The notes beneath the pieces were generated by a model, which saw only the letters and a program-made list of their open reading frames with translations, searched no databases and was not told the origin of the DNA. A DNA stretch of 64,000 bases, from NCBI GenBank assembly GCA_022071945.1, contig JAJVIN010000021.1, positions 32,452 through 96,451 on the forward strand. The letters run 5' to 3'. Position 1 is the stretch's first letter. Every line of letters begins with the position of its first letter. The translations under genes and the position numbers were made by a program. The DNA comes from Thermoanaerobaculia bacterium (GTDB taxonomy: Bacteria; Acidobacteriota; Thermoanaerobaculia; UBA5066). Shown here in pieces: positions 1-55,127 of the stretch.

Positions 1-1102
1 GGGGCCGCGATATTCCGCGGACGCCGCCCGCGGGGGTGGCATCCGGGTCGAGACGCCGGACGGCGGGAGGGGCGAACGAAGCCGGCGCCTGGGGCGCCTG
101 AGGCGGAGGCACGGGCGCCGCGGCAGGCCGGGGCGGAACCGGAGCCGCCGGCGCCTGGGGGGCGGAAAGGTCCGGCAAGGCCGTGTCGATCGCGGAGATG
201 GGGCCGAGCTTCTCGGCAGCCGCCACCATCTGTCCGAGGTCCCGCAGCATCTGCCGTTCCTCTTCGCGGGCCTTGTACTCGTAGAGAGCCAGAGCGAAGT
301 CGTTCCCTCTCTGATAGCGGCTGGCGGGGTCTTTCGCAAGAGCCTTCGTCAGGACCGTCACGAGCTCCGAGGGCATCGAGGCGTCGTACGCCTGAGGCGG
401 CGTGAAGGCCTCATGGACGATCTTGTAAGAGATCTGGGTGAGGTTCTCTCCCGAGAAGGGCTTCTTTCTCGTGAGGAGCTCGTAGAGCACGACACCGAGG
501 GAGAACAGGTCACTTCTTCCGTCGACGGCCTCTCCCGTTACCTGCTCGGGAGACATGTAGTTCGGCGTGCCGAGGAACTGCCCGGTCGAGGTCAGGTTCG
601 ATTTCTCGATCTTGGCGATCCCGAAGTCGGTGATCTTCACCACTCCATCGGGTGTGATGATGATGTTGGCCGGCTTGACGTCGCGGTGGACGATCCCTCG
701 CCGGTGAGCGTAGTCGAGCGCCTCGGCGACTTGCCCGACGATTTCTGCGGCTCGCTCGTAGGTGAACGCCGTCCTTTCCTGCAGGAGCTGCTTGACGTTC
801 TTCCCTTCGACGTACTCCATCGCGATGAAGGACGTCGTGGTGACCGGGTCCTCCCCGACATCGTGAACGGTGACGATGTTCGGGTGAGACAGGATCCCGG
901 CGGCCTGAGCCTCCCTCAGGAACCGCTCTCGGAACTCTTTCTGCTCGGCGTCATCCTCGCCGACCGCGCGGATGGTCTTGAGGGCCACCATCCGCCCGAT
1001 GACGGGGTCTCGCCCGAGATACACGATCCCCATGGCTCCCTTACCCAGCTCACGGACGACCTCGTATCGGCCGAGTTTCTTGAGGGAGTTCGGCCCGGAC
1101 AA
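1..1102 (-). CDS. Hanks-type Ser/Thr protein kinase, 3' partial. The kinase domain is followed by a Pro/Ala-rich linker that continues past the window edge.
   Basis: Minus-strand translation gives LGRYEVVRELGKGAMGIVYLGRDPVIGRMVALKTIR (G-loop and VAIK) and ITPDGVVKITDFGIAKIEKS (DFG). It is absent from the ORF track because no stop lies in the window. The start codon is uncertain: TTG at 1102 or CTG at about 1126. Confidence 0.8.
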   Translation of the reverse strand, partial: MSGPNSLKKLGRYEVVRELGKGAMGIVYLGRDPVIGRMVALKTIRAVGEDDAEQKEFRERFLREAQAAGILSHPNIVTVHDVGEDPVTTTSFIAMEYVEGKNVKQLLQERTAFTYERAAEIVGQVAEALDYAHRRGIVHRDVKPANIIITPDGVVKITDFGIAKIEKSNLTSTGQFLGTPNYMSPEQVTGEAVDGRSDLFSLGVVLYELLTRKKPFSGENLTQISYKIVHEAFTPPQAYDASMPSELVTVLTKALAKDPASRYQRGNDFALALYEYKAREEERQMLRDLGQMVAAAEKLGPISAIDTALPDLSAPQAPAAPVPPRPAAAPVPPPQAPQAPASFAPPAVRRLDPDATPAGGVRGISRP

Positions 1103-1312
1103 CCCCGATTCGGTCGGCAGAAAACCTCCTCGTGCGCGGCAAACGGCTCGAGCCGTCTGCCTTCAATCTGTTACAACCAACTCAAAATTCTAGGTTGCGG
1201 GGATGGGAAGGTCAACGCGAGACCTTCCGTGCCGTCCGGAGCGGCTTTTTCCCGCGCGGCAAACCCTATAATCCGGCGCGGATCTTTACCTCTAGTTTTA
1301 GGAGGGGACCGG

Positions 1313-3400
1313 ATGAAGGTTTACCCGGCATCGGCCATCCATAACGTCGTCGTGGCTGGCCACAACAGCGTGGGAAAGACGACACTGATCTCGGCGCTCT
1401 TGCACGAGGCGGGGGCCGTGACCCGCTTCGGACGTGTCGAGGACGGCACCGCACCGACGGACTTCGACCCCGAGGAGATCGAGCGGAAGATATCCATCGG
1501 TCTCGCCGTGGCGTCCCTCGAGTGGAGGAAGCGCAAGGTCAACCTGATTGACACCCCAGGTTACGGCATTTTCGAGTCCGAGATGGTCTGCGGCATGAGA
1601 GCCGCCGACTCCGCCATCATCGTCGTCGACGCGGTCGCCGGCGTCGAGGTCCAGACCGAACGCGCCTGGAGGGTCTCGGAAGACCTCGGCCTGCCGAAGG
1701 TGGTCGTGGTGAATAGGATGGACCGTGAGCGCGCCGATGGGACGAGGGTCTCCGAGCAGCTCGCGGCGAAGTTTGGACGCCGGTGCGTGTGCATCGAATC
1801 GCCCATCGGACGAGAGCGCGGATTCCGGGGCGTCATCGACCTGGTCGGTATGAAGGGATTCCTGACCGACGACGCCGGCAAGACGAGCGAAGGCCCCATC
1901 CCGGCCGAGTTCTCGGCGGAGGCCGCCAGCCTGCACGAAGCCCTCGTCGAGATGGTCGCCGAGGGAGACGACGCCTTGATGGAGACCTTCTTCTCCCAGG
2001 GCAGCCTCACCGAGGAGCAGATGCTCCCGGCGCTCAGGAAAGCCATCCGGGACCGGAAGATCATCCCCGTCCTCTTCGCCGCCGCCGGCAACCACGAGAC
2101 CGGCGTCGAGAAGATCCTCGACGAGATCGTCGACCTCCTGCCCACCTCGGACAGCTTCACCGTCGCGGCGAGGATGAAGGATGGAAAGCCCGACGTCCTC
2201 TCCGCCGACACGGCTGGCCCGGCCGGCGCCTTTGTTTTCAAGACGATCTCCGACCCGTTCTCCGGGCGCCTCAGCCTGTTCCGGGTCTACTCGGGCTCCA
2301 TCAAGGCGGACGGCACGTACTGGAATTCAACCCGCGAGACGGCCGAGAGGTTCGGAACGGTCTTTGCTCCTCTCGGCAAACAGCTCAACGCCGTTCCCGA
2401 GATTCCGGCCGGCGACATCGGGTGCGTCGCCAAGCTAAAGGACACTCTGACCGGAGACTCTCTCGCCACCAAGGAAAAGCCGCTCTCCTTCGACCCGATC
2501 AAATTCCCCGAACCCGCTATTTCGTTCGCGATCGAGCCGAAATCCAAGGGGGACGAGGACAAGATCTCCGCCGCGATCCAGCGACTCGTCGACGAGGATC
2601 CGTCCCTCAGGCTTTCGCGTGACGCCGATACCCAGGAGTTTCTCCTGGCCGGGTCGGGCCAGCTCCACGTCGAGATCGCCATCGCGCGCATGAAGCGCAA
2701 GTCGAACGTCGAGGTCATCCTGCACCCGCCGAAGGTCCCGTACCGCGAGACCATCACCCGCAACGCCGAGGCCCACGGGCGGCACAAGAAGCAGACGGGC
2801 GGGCACGGCCAGTTCGCCGACTGCAAGATCCGGGTGGCTCCCCTGCCGCGCGGCGCCGACTTCCAGTTCATCGACGACATCTTCGGCGGCTCCATCCCCA
2901 GGCAGTTCATTCCCGCGGTGGAGAAGGGTGTCCAGGAAGCCCGCAAGAGGGGGTTCTTGGCCGGCTTCCCCATGGTCGACTTCAAGGTCGAGCTCTTCGA
3001 CGGTCAGTACCACGACGTCGACTCCTCGGAAATGGCGTTCAAGATCGCGGGCACCCTCGCCTACAAGGACGCCATGGCCAAGGCGAACCCCATCATCCTC
3101 GAGCCGATCGTCGCGGTCACCGTGCGCGCCCCGCAGGAGTACATGGGTGACATCATGGGCGACCTGACGTCCCGCCGCGGACGCCCGTCCGGCATGGAAA
3201 CCGAGGGCGAGGATTCGATCATCAAGGCCGAGGTCCCGATGTCGGAGATGCTCTCCTACGCTCCCGTCCTGCGGTCGATCACCCAGGGCAGAGGGTCCTT
3301 CCACATGGAGATGGACCACTACGAGGAGCTGCCGCGCATGCTCCAGGACAAGCTCGTCGCCGAACGAGCCAAGCTGAAGAAGGCCGAGGCCGAAGAGTAG
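1313..3400 (+). CDS. Elongation factor G family translational GTPase (EF-G paralog).
   Basis: ATG at 1313 is preceded by GGAGGGG. The N-terminus reads AGHNSVGKTTL...DTPG...NRMD (G1, G3 and G4 motifs), followed by EF-G domains II to V. The 413..3400 track ORF is a fusion artefact with antisense kinase sequence upstream. Confidence 0.85.
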   Translation: MKVYPASAIHNVVVAGHNSVGKTTLISALLHEAGAVTRFGRVEDGTAPTDFDPEEIERKISIGLAVASLEWRKRKVNLIDTPGYGIFESEMVCGMRAADSAIIVVDAVAGVEVQTERAWRVSEDLGLPKVVVVNRMDRERADGTRVSEQLAAKFGRRCVCIESPIGRERGFRGVIDLVGMKGFLTDDAGKTSEGPIPAEFSAEAASLHEALVEMVAEGDDALMETFFSQGSLTEEQMLPALRKAIRDRKIIPVLFAAAGNHETGVEKILDEIVDLLPTSDSFTVAARMKDGKPDVLSADTAGPAGAFVFKTISDPFSGRLSLFRVYSGSIKADGTYWNSTRETAERFGTVFAPLGKQLNAVPEIPAGDIGCVAKLKDTLTGDSLATKEKPLSFDPIKFPEPAISFAIEPKSKGDEDKISAAIQRLVDEDPSLRLSRDADTQEFLLAGSGQLHVEIAIARMKRKSNVEVILHPPKVPYRETITRNAEAHGRHKKQTGGHGQFADCKIRVAPLPRGADFQFIDDIFGGSIPRQFIPAVEKGVQEARKRGFLAGFPMVDFKVELFDGQYHDVDSSEMAFKIAGTLAYKDAMAKANPIILEPIVAVTVRAPQEYMGDIMGDLTSRRGRPSGMETEGEDSIIKAEVPMSEMLSYAPVLRSITQGRGSFHMEMDHYEELPRMLQDKLVAERAKLKKAEAEE

Positions 3401-3426
3401 CCTGCCCTCGCCCCCCAGAGATCTCA

Positions 3427-3451
3427 GGGCCGCCGGAGCACCCGGCGGCCC
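3427..3451. terminator. Perfect 10-bp hairpin (GGGCCGCCGG agcac CCGGCGGCCC) between convergent genes.
   Basis: The inverted repeat is read directly from the sequence, 27 nt after the EF-G stop. Confidence 0.6.
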
Positions 3452-3547
3452 TTGTCGTTCGTGCCCTCCTCGCGACGGCTGGCGGTCCCTCACAAGCGAA
3501 AACCGGGGCGCAAGGCCCCGGTTCTCAACCTGTCGATGACTGACCGA

Positions 3548-5221
3548 TCAGCGCACGAGGGTGTTGTTGCTCACGAGGAACCGCCGGGTTCCGGCGCTCG
3601 CCGGCCCGCGGGAGTCCCACACCTCGATCTGCAGGTCGTGCTCGCTGTTGGAGAGGAGCGTCGTGTCGAGGTAGAAGCGGAACCGCGCGTTGGCCGAGCC
3701 GCTGTAGTTCGGGTAGACATCCTCGATGTCCGAGCTCGGGAGCCCGTACTCGGCGTAGTCCACCTTCCGGACGGCGTCGATCTGCGGGATCCCGTCGACG
3801 AGCAGGCGCACCTTCTGGACACCGTCGAGGTCGAGCGTCCAGCCGACGACCGTGTAGATGCCGTTGATGAACTTGTAGTTCGTCGGGTCCTCGATGAGGC
3901 CGATCGGGGGCGGGTCGAGGTTGGCCGTCGCGCAATGCATGTTGATCGGGATCGAGGCGATTTCCTTGTACTGGTTTTCCTTGTCGTACGCCTTGATCTG
4001 GAGCATGTGGGCGCCTTCCTTGAACCCCTTCTGGGTCAAGAGCCAGCCGACGTCGACGGCGAAGTGGAAGCCACAGTTCGGGGCCTGCTGGAATCCCGGA
4101 TACAAGACCTCGATGTCCGGACGGTAGTAGCCGTAGCAGTCGAGGAGCTTGTTCCCGAGATTGGAGATTCGTCCGCAATTGAGGCGGCTGTCCTTGATGG
4201 TGACGCCGTCGATCTCGACCTGCACGTGCGAGACGCCGCCCCGATCCTGGTAGGTCGATGTGTCGAGCGCCCATCCAGTCACGTACATGACGAAGCGAGG
4301 ATCGCGAATGAAGCCAGGATCTCCCGAGGGTCCCGGTCCGCCAAGCTGCACGAAGCAGTTTCCGAACCAGTTCGCGTTCAGCATCGGGTACTCGACCTCG
4401 CCGAACGGAGGCAGGTTGCCCGCGCCAACGCCCAGGACCTGGAACCGGCGACTCCCGAGGAGCCCCTTCTGTCCCTGATCATCGACCGCCATGACCGACA
4501 GGCGGTACCACCCGGCCGGGTACTTCGTGGCGTCGATGTTCATGATGAAGCCAGAGAGCAGCGACTCGGGAACGCCCGGATAGTTCCCATAGACATCCGG
4601 ACGGTAGACGCCCAGCACCGCCTGGCGCTCCTGGAGGTCGTTCACGTAGATCTCGACGTGGTCGATGCGGCGGTCATCGAGCGACCAGCCGGCGACCTGC
4701 AGGACGCCATTCCCGTGGACCGAGGCATTCTCCTTCGGGAAATCGAGGCTCCCGAACGGCGCCTGGTTCTTCCTGTTGTCGAGCCTCACACGGCGCGGCG
4801 CCAGGAAGTAGGCGCAGCCGGTCCGGTCCGTGATCCTCACGTAGATCGTCTGCGTCCCGTTCGAGTAGTTCGAGCCCCGGAAGCTGGTCTCGAAGCCCGG
4901 GTGCTCGCCCGGAGTTCCCGCGTACGCCGGGAAGGCCTGCACGACGTCGGGACGCGGAAGGTTGATGTTCGTCCCGCCGGGCGCCGTCACGCGGTTCGCT
5001 TCCTCCTGGCCGCCGACGTAGAGATCCACGTTGGAGACCTCGTTGCCGTTGAGGAAGAAGCCCTTCACGCGGACGAAGCCGGACACGACGGCCATCTCGG
5101 CCGGTTGCTCGATCACGCCCACGGTCTGAGCCGGACACCCTTCGCCGTTCTGAGCCTTGGCCGGCGCCGCCAGCACAAGACCGAAAGCAAGGGCAGGGAG
5201 GACTGCGGCTCTGAGTCTCAT
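3548..5221 (-). CDS. Secreted protein with four tandem beta-sandwich-like repeats of about 120 aa.
   Basis: Signal peptide MRLRAAVLPALAFGLVLAAPAKAQ follows a GGAGGG RBS. The repeats share GW(S/A/T)LD....V.V.VDG....RPD...YP motifs. The longer track ORF begins upstream at an unsupported start. Confidence 0.7.
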   Translation of the reverse strand: MRLRAAVLPALAFGLVLAAPAKAQNGEGCPAQTVGVIEQPAEMAVVSGFVRVKGFFLNGNEVSNVDLYVGGQEEANRVTAPGGTNINLPRPDVVQAFPAYAGTPGEHPGFETSFRGSNYSNGTQTIYVRITDRTGCAYFLAPRRVRLDNRKNQAPFGSLDFPKENASVHGNGVLQVAGWSLDDRRIDHVEIYVNDLQERQAVLGVYRPDVYGNYPGVPESLLSGFIMNIDATKYPAGWYRLSVMAVDDQGQKGLLGSRRFQVLGVGAGNLPPFGEVEYPMLNANWFGNCFVQLGGPGPSGDPGFIRDPRFVMYVTGWALDTSTYQDRGGVSHVQVEIDGVTIKDSRLNCGRISNLGNKLLDCYGYYRPDIEVLYPGFQQAPNCGFHFAVDVGWLLTQKGFKEGAHMLQIKAYDKENQYKEIASIPINMHCATANLDPPPIGLIEDPTNYKFINGIYTVVGWTLDLDGVQKVRLLVDGIPQIDAVRKVDYAEYGLPSSDIEDVYPNYSGSANARFRFYLDTTLLSNSEHDLQIEVWDSRGPASAGTRRFLVSNNTLVR

Positions 5222-14656: not shown

Positions 14657-17600
14657 GCCTGTCCGATCCCGAGCTTCTTCATCTCGTAGAGGAGCGCCTG
14701 CCTCGTGAGCCCCAGGAGCTTGGCGGCCGCCGTCCGGTTCCCCCGCGCCTCCAGGAGTGCGGCGAGGATCTCCTTCCGTTTCGCGTCCGCGACGGCCTTG
14801 AAGTAGCGCTTCTCCGTTGAAGGCGGAGAAGACTCCAGAGCCGCCTCTTCCTTCCGGACCCTCGAGGGCAGATGCGGGACGTCGATGACGTTTCCCGGCG
14901 AGGCCATGAGCCGGGCGGACTCCAGGGCCGCCATCAGTTCCCGGATGTTCCCGGGCCACGAGTACGTCATCAGAACCGTCTCGGCGCGAGGGGAAAGGCG
15001 CCAGGAGGGCGACAGGGCGCCGTCAATCAGCCGCGCCAGGTCCCTGGGCCGTCGGCGGAGGGGAGGCAGCTCGATCGTGACCCCCGCGATCCGGAAGTAG
15101 AGGTCCTGGCGAAACCGGTTCTGCCTCACGAGGCTCGCGAGATCCTGATGAGTGGCGGAGATCAGCCTGAAATCGGCTGTCCGGGTCCGCGTTTCGCCCA
15201 GCCTGCGGTACTCCTTCTCCTGCAAGAGCCGAAGGAGCTTGGCTTGCAAGGCGAGCGGAAGCTCGCCGATCTCGTCGAGGAAGAGGGTCCCCGAACCGGC
15301 CGTCTCGACGAGCCCGGCCCGGTCCTTCTCCGCTCCCGTGAACGCGCCTCTGGCATGTCCGAAGAGCTCGGACTCCAGCAGGGTGTCGGTCAGCGCGGCC
15401 ACGTTGAGGGCGACATTCGGCCCCGGACGGCCCGAGGCGCCATGAATCTCCCGGGCCAGGATCTCCTTTCCCGTGCCCGTCTCGCCCGTGATCAGGACGG
15501 GCATCGACGATGGCGCGACCCGCCGCGCGAGCTCGAAGGCCTTTTTCGTCTCTTCGTCCTCGCAGACGAACTCCCGGGAGGACCGCGGGCCGCCGGGATC
15601 GGCCCCACCGGAGGCGAGCGTGTGGGTCGAGTACTTTCTCGTCTCGAAATACCGTGACAGGGCCGGACATCCCGCCAGGCTCGCGGCCCGGGCTCCCTCC
15701 TCGAAAAAGACCCCGGCCCTCGCGAGCTCGAAGGCCGCCGGGAACCGGACGGCCCACTCCCAGAGGCGTTCCGCTCTCTCCAGGTCCTTCTTTCTGCTTC
15801 CTCTGACGAGGGTGATTCCCGACTCTTCCAGGGAGGGCACTTGACCGCTCTTGAAGGCGAGTTCCGTCATGAGCAGGCGTTTCTCGAGATCGAGGAGACT
15901 CGCCGTCTCGATCTCCCGCCGGACCGCCGCCGCCGGTGCGCCGGTCGGCGCGCCAAACGTGGTTGGCGCGCCAGCCGTGGTTGGTGCGCCAGCCGTGGTT
16001 GGCGCGCCAGCTACGGCTGGCGCTGCATCGATGAGGCTCGAGAGCCAGAGCCGGATGCGGCTCGTCTCGTTCTGCATCCGGTTGTCCGTGAGCTTGGCGG
16101 CCTCGAGCACGTGCTGCCTCGTTGCGTGCGGCTCTCGCCTGAGGAGAGACCCTCGCGCCTGAACGATCAGGATCTCCCGCCAGGCCGGATGCCCCGGCTG
16201 TTGACGGCCGGCCGAGGCTGCCCGCTGGAACAGGCCGGCACTCGCTTCCAGCTCGAGTTCGGTCAGGAGAATCGCCATCATGGTCGGGACGGAAAAGAGC
16301 CACTGATACTCGCGCCCGGGGACCCCGTCGAAGTCCAGGACTCTCTCGAGATCCCGCCTTGCCTCGGCCACGCAGCCCTCGCGGAAGAAGAGATCCCCCC
16401 TGTTCGCCAGCGCGGAGATGTAGCCGCCAGAGTCGCGAAGGGACACGAAGAGGGCCATCGATTCCTCGAGCTGCTGGCGCGCCTCCTCGAACCTTCCGAG
16501 GTGCATCAGCGAGCCACCGATGTCCAGGGCCGCCTTCGCCCGGATCCTGTCGGTCGTGGCGGACGCCTTCGCCAGCCGGAAGCACCCCTCCGCGCGAGAG
16601 TGCTCCCCGAGGTCCGAATACAGGTACCCCGACGTGAAGGCAAAATCGAGAGAGTTCTCGCCGGAGTTCTCGAGTCCGCCGCTCGCCGTGAGGGTGTCCA
16701 GAATGGATCGAGCCTCCGCGTATTCACCACACCGCGAGAGCGCCTCGGCGGCCGCCAGGAGCCACTCCACATCGTGGTCCTGGACCTCCCGCGGATGTGT
16801 CGAATCGAGGGACTTTCCACGGCTCTTCGAAACCAGTGCCAGCGCCTCGAGATTGCGATTCGCCTCGAGCAAGACCCTCATTTCGAAAAGGCGCCTTCGA
16901 GAGGCAGGAACAAGGGAAGCGATAGAGAGCGCCTTCTCCACGTGCCGGTAACGAGCGAGCAGCTTGCCGGCGCCCTCGACATGCGGGCTGGCGTTCTCGT
17001 CCAGAGTGCCCTCGAAGCAGGCGGCGGCTCGCGTGGCTCGTTCTCCATCGCCGAACCGGTCAGAGAGCACGAGGGCGCGCCAGGCCGAGCCGAGAACGGG
17101 ATCGGACTCAGGAGCGGCCCCCAGAAGGGCAAAAGCCCCTCGCCAGTCTTCCGCGTCGAAGAGGGCGCGAAAACGATCGCGAGCAGCCGGGAGGGCCGCC
17201 GGATCGAGCCTCATCGCGATCCTGAGCTTCTTGTCCGCAACCAGTCCCGAGCTCTGGACGCGTCCAAGGATTCCCTGCCTCTCGGTCCCGCCCATCGCCT
17301 TCTGCAGACTCTCGCGCGGAATGGAGCTCGAAAGCCGCAGATGCCCGCCGGGAACCTCCTCGAGAGTTCCTTCCTCGACGGACTCGGCGACAGAACCGGC
17401 CAGGGCCTCGGCCTCGCGGCCCGCCACGACGGCCAGCTCGGAGAGCGTGAACTCATCGTCGAGAACAGCGGCCGCCTTCAGGACCGGGTTCCGCCTGAAA
17501 CTGGGCGTGGCGGTCACCCCGCGAGCTCGCCGGCCGGTCCAGGAGAGGGACTCGAAGGCACTGACGAAACGGCCTGCCTCTCCCGCGGCTTTCTCGGAAA

Positions 17601-49102: not shown

Positions 49103-50677
49103 GTGGCGCCGCGCATCGCGTGTCTCTTTGTCCCGCTCTTTCCCCTGGCGGCGCGTTTACGCAGTGAGCCTGAGTTGCGCGACGAGGCCGTCGTCATCGT
49201 GGAGGGCAATGGCACGGCGGCCCACGTCGTGGCGGCCTCGAAAAAGAGCCGCAAGGCCGGGATCCAGCCGGGCATGACGCTCCCCCAGGCAAGGGCGCTC
49301 TTACCAAAGCTGGTGGCGCGCAGCCGGGACGCCGCCTGCGAGCGGGCCGCGGAGGAAGTTCTGACCGAGGTCGCGGGCCGCTTCACCCCCCGCTGGGAAG
49401 ACGCGGGGCAGGGAGTGGTTTACCTGGAACTCGGGCAGGCGGGGAAAGAGGACGTGAAAAAACGGGAGAAGCTCCTGGGAAGCGACCTCATTGCCTGTTG
49501 CGAGAAGGAGAGCCTGCCGGCGCGCTGTGGCATCGCCGCGAACAAGCTGGCGGCGCGGGTGGCGGCGGGACTCCCGGAGTCTCCCACGGTCATTCCAGCG
49601 GGCGAGGAGCCGGCGTTTCTGGCACCGCTCCCGCTCGACCGGCTGAGTCCGGAGATCGAGATCTCGGCGGTGCTTTCCCGCTGGGGGCTCTCGTCGATCG
49701 GAGACTTCGCGAAGCTCCCCGCCGCCGAGGTCGTGGCCCGTCTCGGGGAACCCGGCCGGGCGCTGCACGAATCGGCCCGGGGTATCGGCAGTCAGCCCTT
49801 TTTCCCCTCCGTGCCCCCGCCGCTCTTCTCCGAGGGGTTCGACATCGATTGGCCCGTCGTGACTCTCGAACCGTTCCTCGAGTTCGTCGAGGCTGCTCTC
49901 GAAAGGCTCTTGAAGCGCCTCAAGGCCGAGGCCCGAAGCTGCCGGGAGCTCGCCCTGGAAATGAGGCTCGACCCCTCTGGCAGCGACGCGCGGGCGCTGT
50001 CGCTCCCGGCCCCCACACAGGATCTGAAGACACTGAAAACCCTCGTGAAGCTCGAGCTCGAGGCCCGTCCGCCGAAGGCCCCGATCATCGGGTTCACCCT
50101 GTCTGCTCATCCGGACCGGCCCCGGATGGGGCAGCTGACGCTCTTCGGCCCGGTGGAGATCTCTCCCGACCAGCTCGCGACGGCTCTCGCGCGGCTGGCC
50201 GTCCTCGTGGGAGAGGGCCGGATCGGCTCCCCGGATCTCTTCAACGGCCACCTTCCCGAAGGCTTCGTCACCGAGGCGTACGACCCGCCGCCGGCCCCCC
50301 TCAGGCCCACTCCGGCCCGGAGCCGGGGACTTCTCTCCGCACGCGTTCTGCGCCCTCCCGTGGAGCTGGAAGTGTTAACGCAGGAAAAACCGGGCGGCTT
50401 CCGGCTGCTCTCGATCAAGCCACTTCCCGACAGCAAAGCCCTGCACACGGACACGACACCCCGGGAAACTGTCAAGCCGCCAGACGCCAAGGCCCTCGAC
50501 GCGTTACGCGGCACGGTGCTCGTCGCCTCGGGCCCCTGGCACCTCGAGGACGGCTGGTGGAGCGACCAGCCCGTCCGGCGGGCCTACTGGGACCTCGAGA
50601 TATCGGGCGGGACTCTCTGCCGGATCTTTCGAGACGAGACGAACGGCTGCTGGTTCGCGGATGGGATCTATGACTGA
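49103..50677 (+). CDS. imuB: ImuB, Y-family polymerase-like protein of the mutagenesis cassette.
   Basis: The DinB/UmuC-like N-terminus lacks the catalytic acidic triad context. It lies between imuA and dnaE2. Confidence 0.8.
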   Translation: MAPRIACLFVPLFPLAARLRSEPELRDEAVVIVEGNGTAAHVVAASKKSRKAGIQPGMTLPQARALLPKLVARSRDAACERAAEEVLTEVAGRFTPRWEDAGQGVVYLELGQAGKEDVKKREKLLGSDLIACCEKESLPARCGIAANKLAARVAAGLPESPTVIPAGEEPAFLAPLPLDRLSPEIEISAVLSRWGLSSIGDFAKLPAAEVVARLGEPGRALHESARGIGSQPFFPSVPPPLFSEGFDIDWPVVTLEPFLEFVEAALERLLKRLKAEARSCRELALEMRLDPSGSDARALSLPAPTQDLKTLKTLVKLELEARPPKAPIIGFTLSAHPDRPRMGQLTLFGPVEISPDQLATALARLAVLVGEGRIGSPDLFNGHLPEGFVTEAYDPPPAPLRPTPARSRGLLSARVLRPPVELEVLTQEKPGGFRLLSIKPLPDSKALHTDTTPRETVKPPDAKALDALRGTVLVASGPWHLEDGWWSDQPVRRAYWDLEISGGTLCRIFRDETNGCWFADGIYD

Positions 50678-50806
50678 GACGTCGAGTTCCTTCCCGGTGT
50701 CGCCTCCCGTCCAGGGGGAACGGCCTCGTGGGATTCGACACCTCGGACCTCGTGGGATTCAACACCACGAGCCTCGCAGGATCCAACGCCACGGGGAAGC
50801 TCTGGT

Positions 50807-51090
50807 AGCCCCCTCTTTTGTAAAGAGGGGGTTGGGGGAGTTAGAGCCCGCCCGCGAGCCTCACCCACACCGCCGGGCCGCGCTCCTCTTCCTGACACAC
50901 GCCACCAACCCAGCAGAGATTGACGTCAACCTCGCAGAGGCGCTGCTTCGTAGCCCGGCGATTCATCGCCGGGCGTTCGCACGCTTTTCTCCGAACCCCA
51001 AAAAAAAGAGGGCGCGAGGGAACCAAAGTCCAGCCCGGTCTTCCATTCGAGCTCTAACTCCCCCAACCCCCTCTTTACAAAAGAGGGGGC
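50807..51090. mobile_element. MITE-like non-coding element, copy 1. It has perfect 41-bp terminal inverted repeats (50807..50847 and 51050..51090) flanking a 202-bp core.
   Basis: AGCCCCCTCTTTTGTAAAGAGGGGGTTGGGGGAGTTAGAGC and its exact reverse complement. Each TIR contains an internal 10-bp hairpin. Confidence 0.6.
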
Positions 51091-51269
51091 TTTTCGGGCC
51101 GCTCCTGATTCACACCCCGCGGCTTTTCGGGCCGTTCCAGATCCACGCCCGTGGCTTTTCGGGCCGCCACAGATCCACGCCCGTAGCTTTTCGGGCCGCC
51201 ACAGATCCACACCCCACGGCTTTTCGAGCCGCCACAGATCCACGCCCCGCAGCTTTTCGGGCAGACGGA
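51088..51269. repeat. Array of 33-bp tandem repeats (about 5.5 copies in unit 1; a second array of about 3.5 copies lies at 51670..51790).
   Basis: GCTTTTCGGGCCGCCACAGATCCACGCCCGTGG variants sit head-to-tail with no spacers. Confidence 0.85.
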
Positions 51270-51386
51270 ATCTATGACTGAGACGTCGAGGTCCTCTCCG
51301 CTGCCGCCTCCCATCCAGGGAAAACGGGCTGGTGGGATTCAACACCACGGGCCTCGCAGGATTCAACGCCACGGGGAAGCTCTGGT

Positions 51387-51672
51387 AGCCCCCTCTTTTG
51401 TAAAGAGGGGGTTGGGGGAGTTAGAGCCCGCCCGCGAGCCCCACCCGCACCGCCGGGCCACGCTCCTCTTCCTGACACACGCCACCAACCCAGCAGAGAC
51501 CGACGTCAGCCTCGTAGAGGCGCTGCTTCGTAGCCCGGCGATTCATCGCCGGGCGTTCGCACGCTTTTCTCCGAACCCCAAAGAGAAAGGGGGAGCGAGG
51601 GAACCAAAGTCCAGCCCGGCCTTCCATTCGAGCTCTAACTCCCCCAACCCCCTCTTTACAAAAGAGGGGGCT
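51387..51672. mobile_element. MITE-like element, copy 2 (TIRs 51387..51427 and 51632..51672).
   Basis: Identical 41-bp TIRs. The core differs from copy 1 by a few substitutions and a small indel. Confidence 0.6.
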
Positions 51673-51806
51673 TTTCGAGCCGCTCCTGATTCACGCCCCG
51701 TGGCTTTTCGGGCCGTTCCAGATTCACACCCCGCGGCTTTTCGAGCCGCTCCTGATCCACAGCCCGTGGCTTTTCGGGCCGTTCACATCCCGGGGGCTTA
51801 CCCCTC

Positions 51807-54800
51807 ATGACTGAGCGCTTCCCTCCCACCCGCGACCTCTTCATGCCGGGAGACGCGACGAAGATCATCGGCCCCGGCGCCCGCAAGGAGAAGCTGCGCA
51901 ACCGCTCCTTCTCGCCCTCCGCACCCGCACCGGGAGCGCGGTATGTGGAACTGCACGCCGCCTCTGCCTTCTCCTTTCTCGATGGAGCCTCCGAGCCCGA
52001 GGACATCGTGGAAGCCGCCGCCGCCCTTGGTCTCCCCGCGGTCGCCCTCATCGACACGAACGGCGTCTACGGCGCCCCGCGCTTCTACAAGGCGGCGAAG
52101 AAGGCCGGGATCAGGGCTCTCGTCGGCGCGGAAGTCGTCCTGGACCCTTCTCCTTACATCCCTGCCGCTGCCGACACGCAGAAGCGCGGCCCGCTCGGCA
52201 TCGTTCCGCCTCCCCCGCCGCCGGGTCTCCCCCCCGCCCGCGTGACGCTCCTCGTCGAGAGCCAGCGCGGCTACCGCAACCTCTGCCGGCTCCTGACCCA
52301 GGGCGCCCTCGGCAAGCCCAAGGGCGAGGCCGCCGTCACCTGGCACGACATCGCCCACCACTCCGACGGGCTCCACCTCCTGACCGGCAGCGACGAGGGC
52401 CCCGTCGCGCGCACCCTCGCCCAGGAGGGGATCGACTCGGCCCGGCGTCTTCTCGAGCGGCTCTCCGCCCTCTTCCCCGATCGCTGTCACGTGGAACTCC
52501 AGCGGCACAACCGTCGCGACGAGGAGCACCGCAACCAGGCCCTCGTCTCCCTCGCCCGCTCGCTCAAGCTCCCCCTGCTCGCGACGAACGGCGTCCGGTA
52601 CGCACGGCGGGAAAAGCGGCCGCTCTTCGACATCCTGACCTGCATCCGGAACCACACGACGCTCGACGCCGCTGGGACCCTGCTCGACATCAACCGCGAA
52701 CGCCACATGAAGAACGCCTCCGAGATGGCGCTCCTCTTCGCCGACCTCCCCGAGGCCGTCGTCCATGGCGTCGAGCTTTCCGAGAGGCTCGACTTCACGC
52801 TCGCCAACCTCGGCTACCGCTTCCCCGAGTACCCGCTCCCGCCCGGAGACACCGCCGCTTCCCTCCTGCGCCGCCTCACGTGGGAAGCCGCGATGAGCCG
52901 CTTCCGCCCGCTTTCGGCCAAGGCCCAGGCACAGATCAACAAGGAACTCGCCCTCATCGAGAAGCTCGACCTCGCCGGCTACTTCCTCATCGTCTGGGAC
53001 ATCATCCAGTTCTGCAAGAGGAACGGGATCCTCGCGCAGGGACGCGGCTCGGCCGCCAACAGCGCGGTCTGCTACGCCCTCTCCATCACGGCCGTCGATC
53101 CGGTCAAGATGGACCTCCTCTTCGAACGCTTCCTCTCCGAGGAGCGGGGCGAGTGGCCCGATATCGACCTCGATCTCCCCTCCGGCGATGCCCGGGAGAG
53201 CGTCATCCAGTACGTCTACCGGCGCTACGGCTCGCACGGTGCCGGGATGACGGCCAACGTCATCACGTATCGCGACCGCTCCGCCGCCCGCGAGGTCGCC
53301 AAGTCTCTCGGCTTCTCCGCCGAGCAGGTCGACCGGCTCGCCAAGCACCTCGGCAAGTGGAGCTTCGGCGAGTTCCGCGACGGGTTGCGGAAGTTCCCGG
53401 AAGAGATGCGGGCCGCCGGATTCGACCCCGAAGACCTCCGAATCCGGCACTTCGAGACCTTCTGGAAGGAGATCCAGAACCTCCCCCGCCACCTCGGCCA
53501 GCACTCGGGCGGGATGGTCATCGCCATGGGGCGGCTCGACGAGGTCGTCCCGCTCGAACCCGCGGCGATGCCGGGCCGCAACGTCATCCAGTGGGACAAG
53601 GACGACTGCGCCGACCTAGGGATCGTCAAGGTCGACCTCCTCGGGCTCGGGATGCTCGGGGCGATCGCCGAGATGATCCCGACGATCCGGGAGCACGAGA
53701 AGGTCGACGTCGACCTCGCTCATCTCCGCATGGACGACCCGAAGGTCTTCCAGATGCTCAACGAGGCCGACACGGTGGGCGTCTTCCAGGTGGAAAGCCG
53801 TGCGCAGATGGCGTCGCTCCCCAGAAACGCGCCGAGGAACTTCTACGACCTCGTCATCCAGGTGGCCATCATCCGGCCCGGGCCCATCGTCGGCGGGATG
53901 GTCCACCCCTTCTTCGACCGCCGCCAGGGACGCGCCCCGGTCGAGTACCCGCACCCCTCGCTCGAACCCATCCTGGCCCGGACGCTCGGCGTCCCGCTCT
54001 TTCAGGAACAGCTCCTGAAGATCGCCATGGTCGCGGCGGGCTTCACCGGGGGCGAGGCGGAGGAGCTGCGGCGCGCGATGGGCTTCAAGCGTTCCTCCGA
54101 GCGGATGGCCGTCATCGAGAAGCGGCTGCGCGACGGGATGACGAACCGCGGCATCACGGGCGAGGCGCAGGAACAGATCGTCAAGTCGATCACCTCCTTC
54201 GCGCTCTACGGATTTCCGGAGTCCCACGCGGCGAGCTTCGCCCTCATCGCCTACGCGAGCTGCTACCTGAAGGCCCACCACCCCGCGGCGTTCCTGAAAG
54301 GGCTCCTCAATGCCTGGCCGATGGGCTTCTACCACCCGGCAACTCTCGTCAAGGACTCCCAGCGGCACGGCGTGACAGTCCTACCGATCGACGTCTCCCA
54401 CTCGGGCTGGATGTGCCGGATCGAGAAGGGAGCCGTGCGGCTCGGAATGAGGTTCTTGAAAGGCCTCCGGCAGGCCGCCGGGGAGCGAATCGCGAGGGAA
54501 GCTTCGTTCCGTCCCTTCGGAAGCACGCAAGAACTGGCGCGGCGCTGTGAACTCCACGAGGACGAACTCTCGGCCCTCGCCTTCTCCGGAGCGCTCGGAT
54601 CCCTCGGCCTGACGCGGCGTGAGTCGCTCTGGCAGGTGGCGGCGGTTTCCCGGCACCAGGGACCGCTCTTCGATTCCTCGGACGAGGAGATGGCGCCGTC
54701 CCCGCTCCCGGAGATGTCGTCCTTCGAGGAGACGGTCGCGGACTACACCTCCTCCGAGATCACGGCGGGACCGCATCTGATCGCCTACTACCGGAGGCAG

Positions 54801-55127
54801 TTCCGGGAGAAATCGATCTTCTCCGCGGAGGAGCTGACACGGCTCCCGGACGGCATGCGGGTCCGGACGGGAGGGGCGGTCGTCGTGAGGCAGCGGCCCG
54901 GGACAGCGAAAGGGTTCGTCTTTCTCTCACTCGAGGACGAGACGGGAATGGCCCAGGCGATCGTGAAGCCCGACATCTTTCGCGAGAACCGGGCGCTCAT
55001 CGTCGGGTCGCCAGGCCTCATCGTGGAGGGGCGGCTGCAGAAGACCGACGGGACGCTTTCCGTGAGGGCGGAGAAGTTCTGGCGGCTGCCGGACCTGCCA
55101 CAGATCCCGAGTCACGACTTCAGATGA
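51807..55127 (+). CDS. dnaE2: Error-prone DNA polymerase DnaE2 (ImuC).
   Basis: PHP domain (HAASAFSFLDGAS) and Pol III alpha catalytic core. The DnaE2-type C-terminus lacks tau-binding extensions. Confidence 0.9.
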   Translation: MTERFPPTRDLFMPGDATKIIGPGARKEKLRNRSFSPSAPAPGARYVELHAASAFSFLDGASEPEDIVEAAAALGLPAVALIDTNGVYGAPRFYKAAKKAGIRALVGAEVVLDPSPYIPAAADTQKRGPLGIVPPPPPPGLPPARVTLLVESQRGYRNLCRLLTQGALGKPKGEAAVTWHDIAHHSDGLHLLTGSDEGPVARTLAQEGIDSARRLLERLSALFPDRCHVELQRHNRRDEEHRNQALVSLARSLKLPLLATNGVRYARREKRPLFDILTCIRNHTTLDAAGTLLDINRERHMKNASEMALLFADLPEAVVHGVELSERLDFTLANLGYRFPEYPLPPGDTAASLLRRLTWEAAMSRFRPLSAKAQAQINKELALIEKLDLAGYFLIVWDIIQFCKRNGILAQGRGSAANSAVCYALSITAVDPVKMDLLFERFLSEERGEWPDIDLDLPSGDARESVIQYVYRRYGSHGAGMTANVITYRDRSAAREVAKSLGFSAEQVDRLAKHLGKWSFGEFRDGLRKFPEEMRAAGFDPEDLRIRHFETFWKEIQNLPRHLGQHSGGMVIAMGRLDEVVPLEPAAMPGRNVIQWDKDDCADLGIVKVDLLGLGMLGAIAEMIPTIREHEKVDVDLAHLRMDDPKVFQMLNEADTVGVFQVESRAQMASLPRNAPRNFYDLVIQVAIIRPGPIVGGMVHPFFDRRQGRAPVEYPHPSLEPILARTLGVPLFQEQLLKIAMVAAGFTGGEAEELRRAMGFKRSSERMAVIEKRLRDGMTNRGITGEAQEQIVKSITSFALYGFPESHAASFALIAYASCYLKAHHPAAFLKGLLNAWPMGFYHPATLVKDSQRHGVTVLPIDVSHSGWMCRIEKGAVRLGMRFLKGLRQAAGERIAREASFRPFGSTQELARRCELHEDELSALAFSGALGSLGLTRRESLWQVAAVSRHQGPLFDSSDEEMAPSPLPEMSSFEETVADYTSSEITAGPHLIAYYRRQFREKSIFSAEELTRLPDGMRVRTGGAVVVRQRPGTAKGFVFLSLEDETGMAQAIVKPDIFRENRALIVGSPGLIVEGRLQKTDGTLSVRAEKFWRLPDLPQIPSHDFR

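Follow-up and report, generated by a model that had tools for sequence, protein, structure and literature searches.

The inverted arms in the gap between imuB and dnaE2 of this Thermoanaerobaculia (Acidobacteriota) MAG, which a preliminary description had taken for the terminal inverted repeats of a MITE-like element, are best read as inverted copies of a 41-nt dispersed repeat of the BoxC/PIT/TM intrastrand triplex class, lying in a duplicated, rearrangement-prone spacer of the SOS mutasome operon (we put the probability of this reading at about 0.72). On this reading, the repeat is a new sequence family within a known repeat class of obscure function; it is neither a transposon nor a new RNA. 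In what follows, the window is the whole 64-kb stretch of DNA that was analysed, and the numbered module copies were counted within these 64 kb only.

The 41-mer AGCCCCCTCTTTTGTAAAGAGGGGGTTGGGGGAGTTAGAGC is located at 50807-50847 on the plus strand (module 1), and its exact reverse complement at 51051-51091 on the minus strand (module 2). The arms lie 203 nt apart and are perfect over 41 nt, or 44 nt long when one mismatch is allowed (98% identity). The chance expectation for a 39-mer match in the window is 0.00, and the perfect 41-nt arms of the preliminary description are thus present and beyond chance. Its count of two copies was too low, since the 41-mer occurs four times in the window: a second pair of exact matches consists of module 3 (51387-51427, plus strand) and module 4 (51632-51672, minus strand). 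This second copy of the whole arrangement (51387-51672) had been overlooked. The 10-bp hairpin described inside each arm is indeed perfect, but its loop is the 3-nt TGT instead of "tgta". A three-way junction with two such local hairpins had also been predicted; as RNA, it is 23 kcal/mol weaker than a continuous 41-bp duplex of the arms (-132.2 versus -155.4 kcal/mol). Finally, the 16-nt tail, which was supposed to pair solely with the opposite arm, obeys third-strand rules on the hairpin of its own module.

The triplex motif proper comprises 35 nt (CCCCCTCTTTTGTAAAGAGGGGGTTGGGGGAGTTA, at 50809-50843 in module 1). Its blocks follow one another as pyrimidine CCCCCTCTTT, loop TGT, purine AAAGAGGGGG, loop TT and third strand GGGGGAGTTA. 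With the third strand aligned antiparallel to the purine block, all ten triads belong to the permitted kinds (G*G-C seven times, T*A-T twice and A*A-T once). For the scan, we re-implemented the class II ITxF rules (PMC4666352), i.e. consecutive 5'-pyrimidine/purine/third strand-3' blocks with stems of 6-15 nt and loops of 1-6 nt, G*G-C, A*A-T and T*A-T as the only triads, and at most one mismatch. In each of the four window copies, 10 triads without a mismatch and loops of 3 and 2 nt were found, and the four modules are the sole class II motifs with a stem of at least 8 in the 64 kb; in 30 shuffles of the window, no class II motif with such a stem was found. The E. coli BoxC/TM_ECO example used as a positive control (L024) was recovered by the same scan. 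Most metagenome copies (15/17, see below) were also returned with 10 triads, no mismatch and the same loop lengths, and the two that were missed are variants, one with a stem change (at 3010 in locus L012) and the other with a 5-nt loop insertion (L015).

The fit of the third strand accounts for the conserved "tail" of the module. By sequence rules, the module is a class II intrastrand triplex motif, and triplex formation itself is a prediction. According to Holder et al. 2015 (PMC4666352), TM_ECO adopts an intrastrand purine-motif triplex in vitro; it was observed with isolated single strands, whereas duplex DNA and in vivo footprinting showed none. The TM_ECO pattern CCCTCNCCC N3-6 GGGNGAGGG N3 GGGNGAGGG does not occur in the window module; it does occur in sibling repeats of related loci, at 2701 and 4129 in L020 and at 5820 in L022. 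The siblings have the form CCCTCTCCC-NNN-GGGAGAGGG-TCG-GGGTGAGGG, and the same motif is found in E. coli with a median of four per genome, i.e. it is the BoxC/PIT/TM_ECO element. As the module departs from the TM_ECO sequence pattern and shares its architecture, we assigned it to a new sequence family within that structural class. Two features receive no account from the triplex, namely the conserved GAGC and an invariant G three bases past the module (19/19 copies). The perfect hairpin with its tail could equally be the recognition site of some protein or transposase.

Copies of the 41-mer were also found in other genomes. The scan of metagenome contigs, which needed an exact 26-mer and thus leaves only the other 15 nt free of ascertainment bias, returned 13 loci. 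In these loci, the 41-mer is 97.6-100% identical and sharply bounded, with flanks that are unrelated between loci. A single full module is present in ten of the 13, convergent pairs enclosing unrelated sequence of 141-148 nt are present in L010 and L012, and L017 carries a symmetrical version of the module. Altogether, 19 full copies across 14 loci have near-identical stems and less conserved loops. The copies differ in the first-loop base (T or C, giving TGT or TGC); the remaining differences are a single insertion in a loop, a single change in a stem and a single terminal change. Concentration of variation in the first loop has been reported for TM_ECO as well (PMC4666352). Outside the module, the 5' flank is semi-conserved (yTCCrA-AGCC), which extends the repeat to about 47 nt when the 5' TCCGA is counted, and the third base after the module is the G mentioned above.

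Two of the module loci belong to GCA_016277765.1, a MAG whose ImuB is 66% identical to that of the window, and another module locus encodes a protein 47% identical to its window counterpart. The identity of 97.6-100% in the 41-mer is striking against the 47-66% of orthologous proteins and indicates that the repeat is far better conserved than the genes. Within the window, modules show no differences between the two tandem units described below (0/88), while the divergence of the units outside the modules reaches 8.6% (P = 4e-4 versus modules); core 1 and core 2 are 95% identical, with a divergence of 5.6% (P = 0.006 versus modules). "Recent mobility or strong structural selection", as the preliminary description put it, is thus a fair reading of a repeat that is multi-copy, sharply bounded, exceptionally conserved and present in other genomes. 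When 185,579 species-representative genomes were scanned for exact occurrences of a 39-mer and a 21-mer, no match was found, from which it can be inferred that the repeat is confined to lineages absent from this set. Neither a scan of viral contigs nor BLAST against plasmids and phages yielded a match, and the module is absent from the flanks given for the Acido-Lenti-1 seed sequences.

As for gene context, the module was located 9-32 nt past the stop codon, or overlapping it, in seven loci with seven unrelated Pfam-confirmed genes (those of an enolase-superfamily enzyme, a TPR protein, a methyltransferase, an OmpR-type regulator, a peptidase M2, a phosphodiesterase and an amine oxidase), and in all seven its strand is the coding strand. 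None of the 20 genes flanking modules encodes a transposase. In L018, the module lies in frame within a gene for an AddB-like PD-(D/E)XK nuclease, in an insertion of about 35 residues that is missing from 12 homologs. Beyond the modules, inverted symmetry of the flanks is not significant (score 18 versus 16 +/- 2.3 in shuffles). Several other kinds of element were considered and rejected. An integron attC site was suggested by GCTCTAAC...GTTAGAGC, which resembles R''/R' sites; reading of the alignments revealed that most copies are without the left half and that their contexts are large housekeeping genes, not cassettes. A CRISPR repeat, a tRNA fragment and a dif site were rejected on sequence, and no tRNA genes were found in the window.

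In the window itself, the modules occupy a 1.13-kb gap filled by a tandem duplication of about 600 nt. Upstream of it lies imuB (49103-50677, plus strand; Y-family polymerase-like, Pfam IMS, E 1.8e-20), preceded by a RecA-like imuA; the ImuB protein is 100% identical to a Thermoanaerobaculia MAG protein, and the 3' codons of its gene (ATC TAT GAC TGA) overlap the ATGACTGAG start. Downstream lies dnaE2 (51807-55127, plus strand), which encodes an error-prone Pol III alpha paralog with Pfam PHP, DNA_pol3_alpha, finger, HHH_6 and OB domains, and whose start ATGACTGAG aligns with the N-terminal region of the ortholog in L019. The two tandem units between them (plus strand, 50657-51260 and 51261-51806, about 604 and 546 nt, delimited by self-BLAST and alignment) are 88% identical overall, the self-BLAST match of unit 1 covering 51261-51781. 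Both units have their parts in the same order: the imuB 3' end (~20 nt) comes first, the 24-nt repeats and a plus-strand module follow, and then come the core of about 200 nt, a minus-strand module and the 32/33-nt repeats. In unit 1, the 24-nt tandem repeat (GCCTCGTGGGATTCAACACCACGA; 50723-50793, TRF and alignment) has three copies, and the 32/33-nt tandem repeat (GGCTTTTCGGGCCGCCACAGATCCACGCCCGC; 51088-51262, TRF and repeat search) has 5.4 copies and begins within the end of module 2. According to the alignment, unit 2 is one copy of the 24-nt repeat short, and its 33-nt repeat counts 3.4 copies (51669-51781, TRF). Each unit begins with a copy of the last ~20 nt of imuB, including the ATGACTGAG stop/start overlap, and the copy that opens unit 2 is diverged (GACGGAATCTATGACTGAG). 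The ATGACTGAG copies, which represent the imuB stop and the dnaE2 start, bound the 600-nt duplication units and not the inverted-repeat unit.

A single tandem duplication at a short microhomology (TTCG...GA.GG.ATCT) explains both copies of the supposed MITE, and two insertions are not needed. When TRF was run on the 64 kb, four of its five tandem-repeat rows (three of four distinct arrays) fell in the imuB-dnaE2 spacer. The orthologous spacer of GCA_016277765.1, which is syntenic (ImuB 66% identical), is shorter than 100 nt and contains no module. In L020, a TM_ECO-pattern motif is found at an internal tandem duplication of imuB of 435-450 nt. The link between motif and tandem duplication is an association, a co-occurrence at two loci and not a demonstrated cause. 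The spacer is a mosaic of repeat types, like a BIME.

The proposed fold is one of a single DNA strand, in which the pyrimidine block CCCCCTCTTT would pair with the purine block AAAGAGGGGG to form a hairpin, and the downstream GGGGGAGTTA would lie back on the purine block via reverse-Hoogsteen G*G-C, A*A-T and T*A-T triads. The module is dispersed over several Thermoanaerobaculia lineages, usually behind stop codons and at times in inverted pairs. In the window, ordinary locus-specific spacer is enclosed by each convergent pair, including a double hairpin on the opposite strand that resembles Acido-Lenti-1. The stretch of about 600 nt with one pair was duplicated in tandem at the microhomology, and the 24- and 33-nt minisatellites would have grown beside the modules. 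Following PMC4666352, the triplex may form transiently on DNA that becomes single-stranded in replication, repair or transcription; in transcription, the coding strand serves as the non-template strand, and for co-oriented genes it also provides the lagging-strand template. The structure might stall polymerases, leading to slippage and hence to local duplications, and a further possible effect of the hairpins is a damping or uncoupling of dnaE2 expression.

As regards the spread of the repeat, a RAYT/TIRYT-type transposase is the leading candidate. It is possible, although we consider it distinctly less probable than not, that the module is a REP/TIR-type non-autonomous element moved as a single-stranded DNA hairpin by an HUH tyrosine transposase (RAYT or TIRYT), in which case the locus would be a BIME-like cluster. 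This explanation concerns only spread and conservation and is compatible with the fit to triplex rules. The module is a palindrome of REP size, dispersed and extragenic, located near stop codons at the 3' ends of ORFs, present as singles, dimers and clusters and once within a repair gene; all these placements have been described for REPs, including REPs in DnaE2 genes (Di Nocera 2013, PMC3733652). Target-site duplication is absent, as expected for IS200/IS605-like chemistry, and the biased orientation with respect to genes is consistent with single-stranded DNA as the target. Moreover, a separate group of TIRYTs is found in Acidobacteria, with TIR families that are genome-repeated and share GGGGWSAS (PMC3733652). 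The third strand of the sibling repeats (GGGGTGAG) fits this consensus, while GGGGGAGT of the module matches it at 6/8 positions. On the other hand, a common GTAG or CGTC tag is lacking, the 5' flank being TCCGA-AG, and GGTAG occurs in the two left-hand window copies only. No Y1 transposase was detected by tblastn with RAYT/IS200 queries in about 260 kb (a weak search, as the queries were approximate), the 20 flanking genes are likewise free of transposases, and BoxC/TM_ECO elements were reported to be unlinked to mobile elements (PMC4666352).

The sequence enclosed by the modules (core 1, 50848-51050) is locus-specific spacer DNA, as judged by BLAST of the unit against the 13 loci. Both palindromes formerly described in it, CCCGGCGAttcaTCGCCGGG (50954-50973) and TTGACGTCAA (50921-50930), are present, but the latter is lost in the duplicate unit, where its counterpart reads CCGACGTCAG; it is thus probably due to chance. 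At gathering thresholds, Rfam returned nothing in the window or in 15 loci. A search with relaxed threshold gave matches to RF01687 (Acido-Lenti-1) on the minus strand of both units, the better one in unit 2 (51508-51553; 36.8 bits versus the gathering value of 37; local E 1e-6, whole-window E 1e-4) and the weaker one in unit 1 (50928-50973; 27.8 bits; local E 3e-4, whole-window E 0.028). As in Acido-Lenti-1 (PMC2864571), the minus strand of the core contains a first hairpin of 8 bp closed by a UGAA loop, the conserved GGCUA, a linker of 12 nt and a second hairpin of 5 bp, so that all structural elements of RF01687 are present, and its first hairpin is one compensatory pair apart from a soil seed sequence. 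The match differs from the family in being borderline and in spanning only 46 nt of the core, without involvement of the inverted arms. The Rfam check suggested in the preliminary description therefore yielded a sub-threshold match for the core, and no family covers the unit of about 280 nt. In the published seed of RF01687 itself, dozens of copies are present per genome, many of them in tandem or inverted at 74-200-nt spacing, and of six instances whose flanks were inspected, four lie near a gene's 3' end, the gene being on the other strand. The Acido-Lenti-1 family may itself be a REP-like repeat, which is our inference and not that of its authors (PMC2864571).

We regard it as rather unlikely that the region acts as structured RNA, either through hairpins in the imuA-imuB-dnaE2 transcript, with stabilisation of the message upstream or attenuation of dnaE2 as their effect, or as an antisense Acido-Lenti-1 small RNA from the minus strand. 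Such a role would be in line with the two RF01687 scores and their compensatory changes versus the seed, with the second hairpin of unit 1 (closed by G-U on the minus strand and by A-C on the plus strand), and with the position of the modules behind stop codons on the coding strand, like that of mRNA-stabilising REPs (PMC3733652). However, the better score falls just below the Rfam threshold, and the seed resembles a dispersed tandem repeat, not a gene. The RNA folding z-score of -9.4, which could be counted in favour, is a trivial consequence of the inverted repeat. Neither an intrinsic terminator nor a sigma-70 promoter was found in the spacer, and PIT/BoxC elements are without promoter or terminator activity (PMC4666352). 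Furthermore, the conserved tail has no explanation at the RNA level, because purine-motif triplexes do not form in RNA (PMC4666352). The latter property, one of DNA, also speaks against the stable RNA of about 280 nt envisaged in the preliminary description.

Some of the contexts involve repair genes: four modules lie in the imuB-dnaE2 gap, TM_ECO-pattern siblings are in frame within imuB in two other MAGs, and one module lies in the gene of the AddB-like nuclease. It seems improbable to us that triplex repeats of this lineage are preferentially tied to genes of error-prone or recombinational repair, whether they act as polymerase-stalling and instability sites that tune or diversify the mutasome operon, or are both created and spread by the repair machinery.

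The original interpretation as a MITE, taken here as a unit of about 283 bp with 41-bp terminal inverted repeats that a DDE-type transposase would move as a whole, now appears very unlikely. Perfect 41-nt inverted arms 203 nt apart do occur twice in the window, and convergent pairs exist in L010 and L012, too. Nevertheless, the 200-bp core was found beside the module in 0/13 other loci, where BLAST of the unit matches modules only; the single full module prevails there (10/13), and what lies between the paired modules of L010 and L012 is unrelated. Target-site duplications are lacking: the modules have no consistent direct repeat beside them, nor does the 283-bp unit have one (GCTCTGGT on one side, TTTCGGGCC on the other). 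The one tandem duplication that explains both window copies also copied the 3' end of imuB, a protein-level search with the open frame of the unit found only itself, and plasmid and phage collections contained no match.

Two readings are weaker still. That the open frames X1 (203 codons, 50670-51281, plus strand; its ATG overlaps the stop of imuB and its TGA the following ATG) and X2 (178 codons, 51274-51810, plus strand, ending in an ATGA overlap with the dnaE2 start) are small proteins translated by coupling between imuB and dnaE2 is highly improbable: the frames are consecutive, chain imuB to dnaE2 through stop/start overlaps (ATGACTGA, ATGA) and have chance probabilities of openness of 0.007 and 0.013, and X1 is annotated in the MAG as a hypothetical protein, but their GC3 (0.62 for X1, 0.63 for X2) is below the 0.78-0.90 of the neighbouring genes, their homologous 3' halves are read in different frames, neither has a Pfam match, and among 5.8 billion proteins only X1's own entry was returned for X1. 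The frames may matter solely for ribosome retention on the message and not for their products; if their openness is selected, we can only speculate that it keeps ribosomes on the imuB-dnaE2 message. For annotation, both "hypothetical proteins" of the gap should not be called genes. Equally improbable is an artefact of metagenome assembly, such as a serial joining of two strain variants that would give the doubled arrangement: the window does come from a MAG and contigs from five independent read sets all end at or within the first module, but with k = 31 an inverted repeat of a 41-mer is expected to break contigs, a divergence of 5-12% plus indels makes the units separately assemblable, and the junction ...TTTTCGGGCAGACGGAATCTATGACTGAG... 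is non-imuB sequence that joins the 33-nt repeats to the diverged copy of the last ~20 nt of imuB, unlike a strain chimera.

Taken as a triplex repeat, the module can be compared with several known systems. With REPs and BIMEs and with the TIRs of TIRYTs (PMC3733652), it shares the nature of a short, GC-rich dispersed palindrome behind ORFs, which sometimes supplies the stop codon, the occurrence as singles, inverted dimers and clusters, the lack of target-site duplication and the occasional in-frame position within DNA-repair genes, among them dnaE2 in the case of REPs. It differs from them in the absence of a GTAG/CGTC tag and of a linked tyrosine transposase (within about 260 kb, by the weak search), and, in contrast to ordinary REPs, its asymmetric tail can be explained by a triplex. 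Like the inverted-repeat unit, bacterial MITEs (Correia/NEMIS, ERIC, RUP) are a few hundred bp long, bounded by inverted repeats, intergenic and able to fold into a long hairpin; the unit, however, has no target-site duplication, its internal sequence is not common to the copies, and its arms mostly occur alone. The MIRU minisatellites of Mycobacterium, a description credited to Supply and colleagues in 1997, are reportedly tandem repeats within operons whose open frames overlap the flanking stop and start codons, which recalls the overlap chain imuB - X1 - X2 - dnaE2. MIRU units measure 46-101 bp, as opposed to about 600 bp for the units of the window, and are without triplex or hairpin modules.

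The closest relatives are the BoxC/PIT/TM_ECO elements (Bachellier 1990s; Hoyne and Maher 2000; PMC4666352). They consist, as does the module, of a pyrimidine block, a short loop, a purine block, a short loop and a G-rich third strand, with a total of about 35-37 nt, and they likewise occur in many dispersed copies with near-identical stems and variable loops, mostly intergenic, with some inverted pairs, without a known associated transposase and in rearrangement-prone loci. Extraordinary identity between copies, intergenic location, inverted pairs and the lack of a transposon link are properties reported for the class as a whole, and loci bearing its motifs were found to be rearranged more than controls (PMC4666352). 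The occurrence of a triplex motif beside a fresh tandem duplication at two loci is independent, cross-phylum support for the proposal that such motifs destabilise their neighbourhood. The module is distinguished from TM_ECO by its stems (CCCCCTCTTT / AAAGAGGGGG / GGGGGAGTTA with two T*A-T triads, versus CCCTCNCCC / GGGNGAGGG / GGGNGAGGG), by ten triads instead of nine, by a second loop of 2 instead of 3 nt, and by the added conserved 3' extension GAGC..G and 5' TCCGA. Its strong preference for the same strand behind stop codons is not seen for TM_ECO. Its host belongs to Thermoanaerobaculia (Acidobacteriota), whereas TM_ECO is an element of E. coli and other Proteobacteria. The label of a MITE or small RNA is thereby replaced by the testable one of a triplex repeat, whose stem sequence is new and makes use of T*A-T triads, and intrastrand triplex repeats, earlier characterised mainly in Proteobacteria and counted in Cyanobacteria, are extended to an uncultured class of Acidobacteriota.

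Between imuB (49103-50677) and dnaE2 (51807-55127) in the window, two long open frames without a coding signature were present (50670-51281 and 51274-51810). Stop/start codon overlaps (ATGACTGA, ATGA) linked imuB through both of these frames to dnaE2. By analogy with mycobacterial MIRUs, which reportedly preserve translational coupling across inserted DNA, the chained frames may keep coupling intact across the DNA inserted here. An identical ImuB was encoded on contigs of five independent public read sets (L001-L005), all five of which ended at or inside the first 41-nt module. This shows a widespread organism and a repeat at which short-read assemblies break.

At three loci of relatives (L020, L022 and L023; ImuB identity ~59%), the place of dnaE2 downstream of imuB was taken by a PIN-toxin gene and a tyrosine integrase. 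At a fourth locus (L021), a 2.4-kb stretch without any called gene lay there. The 3' side of imuB looks like an insertion hot spot. Within imuB itself, repeats exactly matching the E. coli TM_ECO/BoxC pattern were found in frame in two other Thermoanaerobaculia MAGs (L020 2699-2734 and 4127-4162; L022 5820-5852), where they encode the peptide PLPPGEGRGEG in the variable ImuB linker. Only from Proteobacteria had the pattern been reported (Holder 2015, PMC4666352). The 675-aa ImuB of L020 is the product of an internal tandem duplication of 435-450 nt (2649-3068 vs 3084-3518, copies 95% identical), and a triplex motif is located near the junction, within the first copy. Triplex motif and tandem duplication are paired in L020 imuB as they are in the window gap.

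In-frame placement was observed for the 41-nt module as well, namely in an AddB-like PD-(D/E)XK nuclease gene of another metagenome locus (L018 3405-3445; ORF 813-4478, minus strand). There, the module sits in an insertion of ~35 residues that 12 homologs do not have. Directly past the stop codon of this gene (about 640-805) there is a second copy, in two parts with ~135 nt of other sequence between them.

Several other repeats were encountered. Two loci shared a repeat with 91% identity over 68 nt (L011 2308-2375, L014 3130-3197); its 12-bp hairpin (CCTCTCCCGCGC...TCGCGGGAGAGG), with GTTGGGGTGAGGG after it, makes it a relative of the TM_ECO pattern with a longer stem. A weaker match to the class II triplex rules (CCTCCCCT / AGGGGAGG / GGATGGGA; 8 triads, 1 mismatch) occurred in two copies 297 nt apart (L007 5753-5787 and 6050-6084). 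In the window, an 18-nt tandem repeat (15943-16011; 3.8 copies, GGTTGGCGCGCCAGCCGT) forms a long hairpin and was the source of spurious miRNA-family matches in the relaxed Rfam search.

Finally, the seed alignment of Acido-Lenti-1 (Rfam RF01687) comprises roughly 55 copies from Lentisphaera araneosa and 12 from Koribacter, many of them in tandem (spacing 74, 110 or 192-200 nt) or inverted (Weinberg 2010 supplement, PMC2864571). In this respect Acido-Lenti-1 resembles a family of REP-like repeats more than it does one small-RNA gene.
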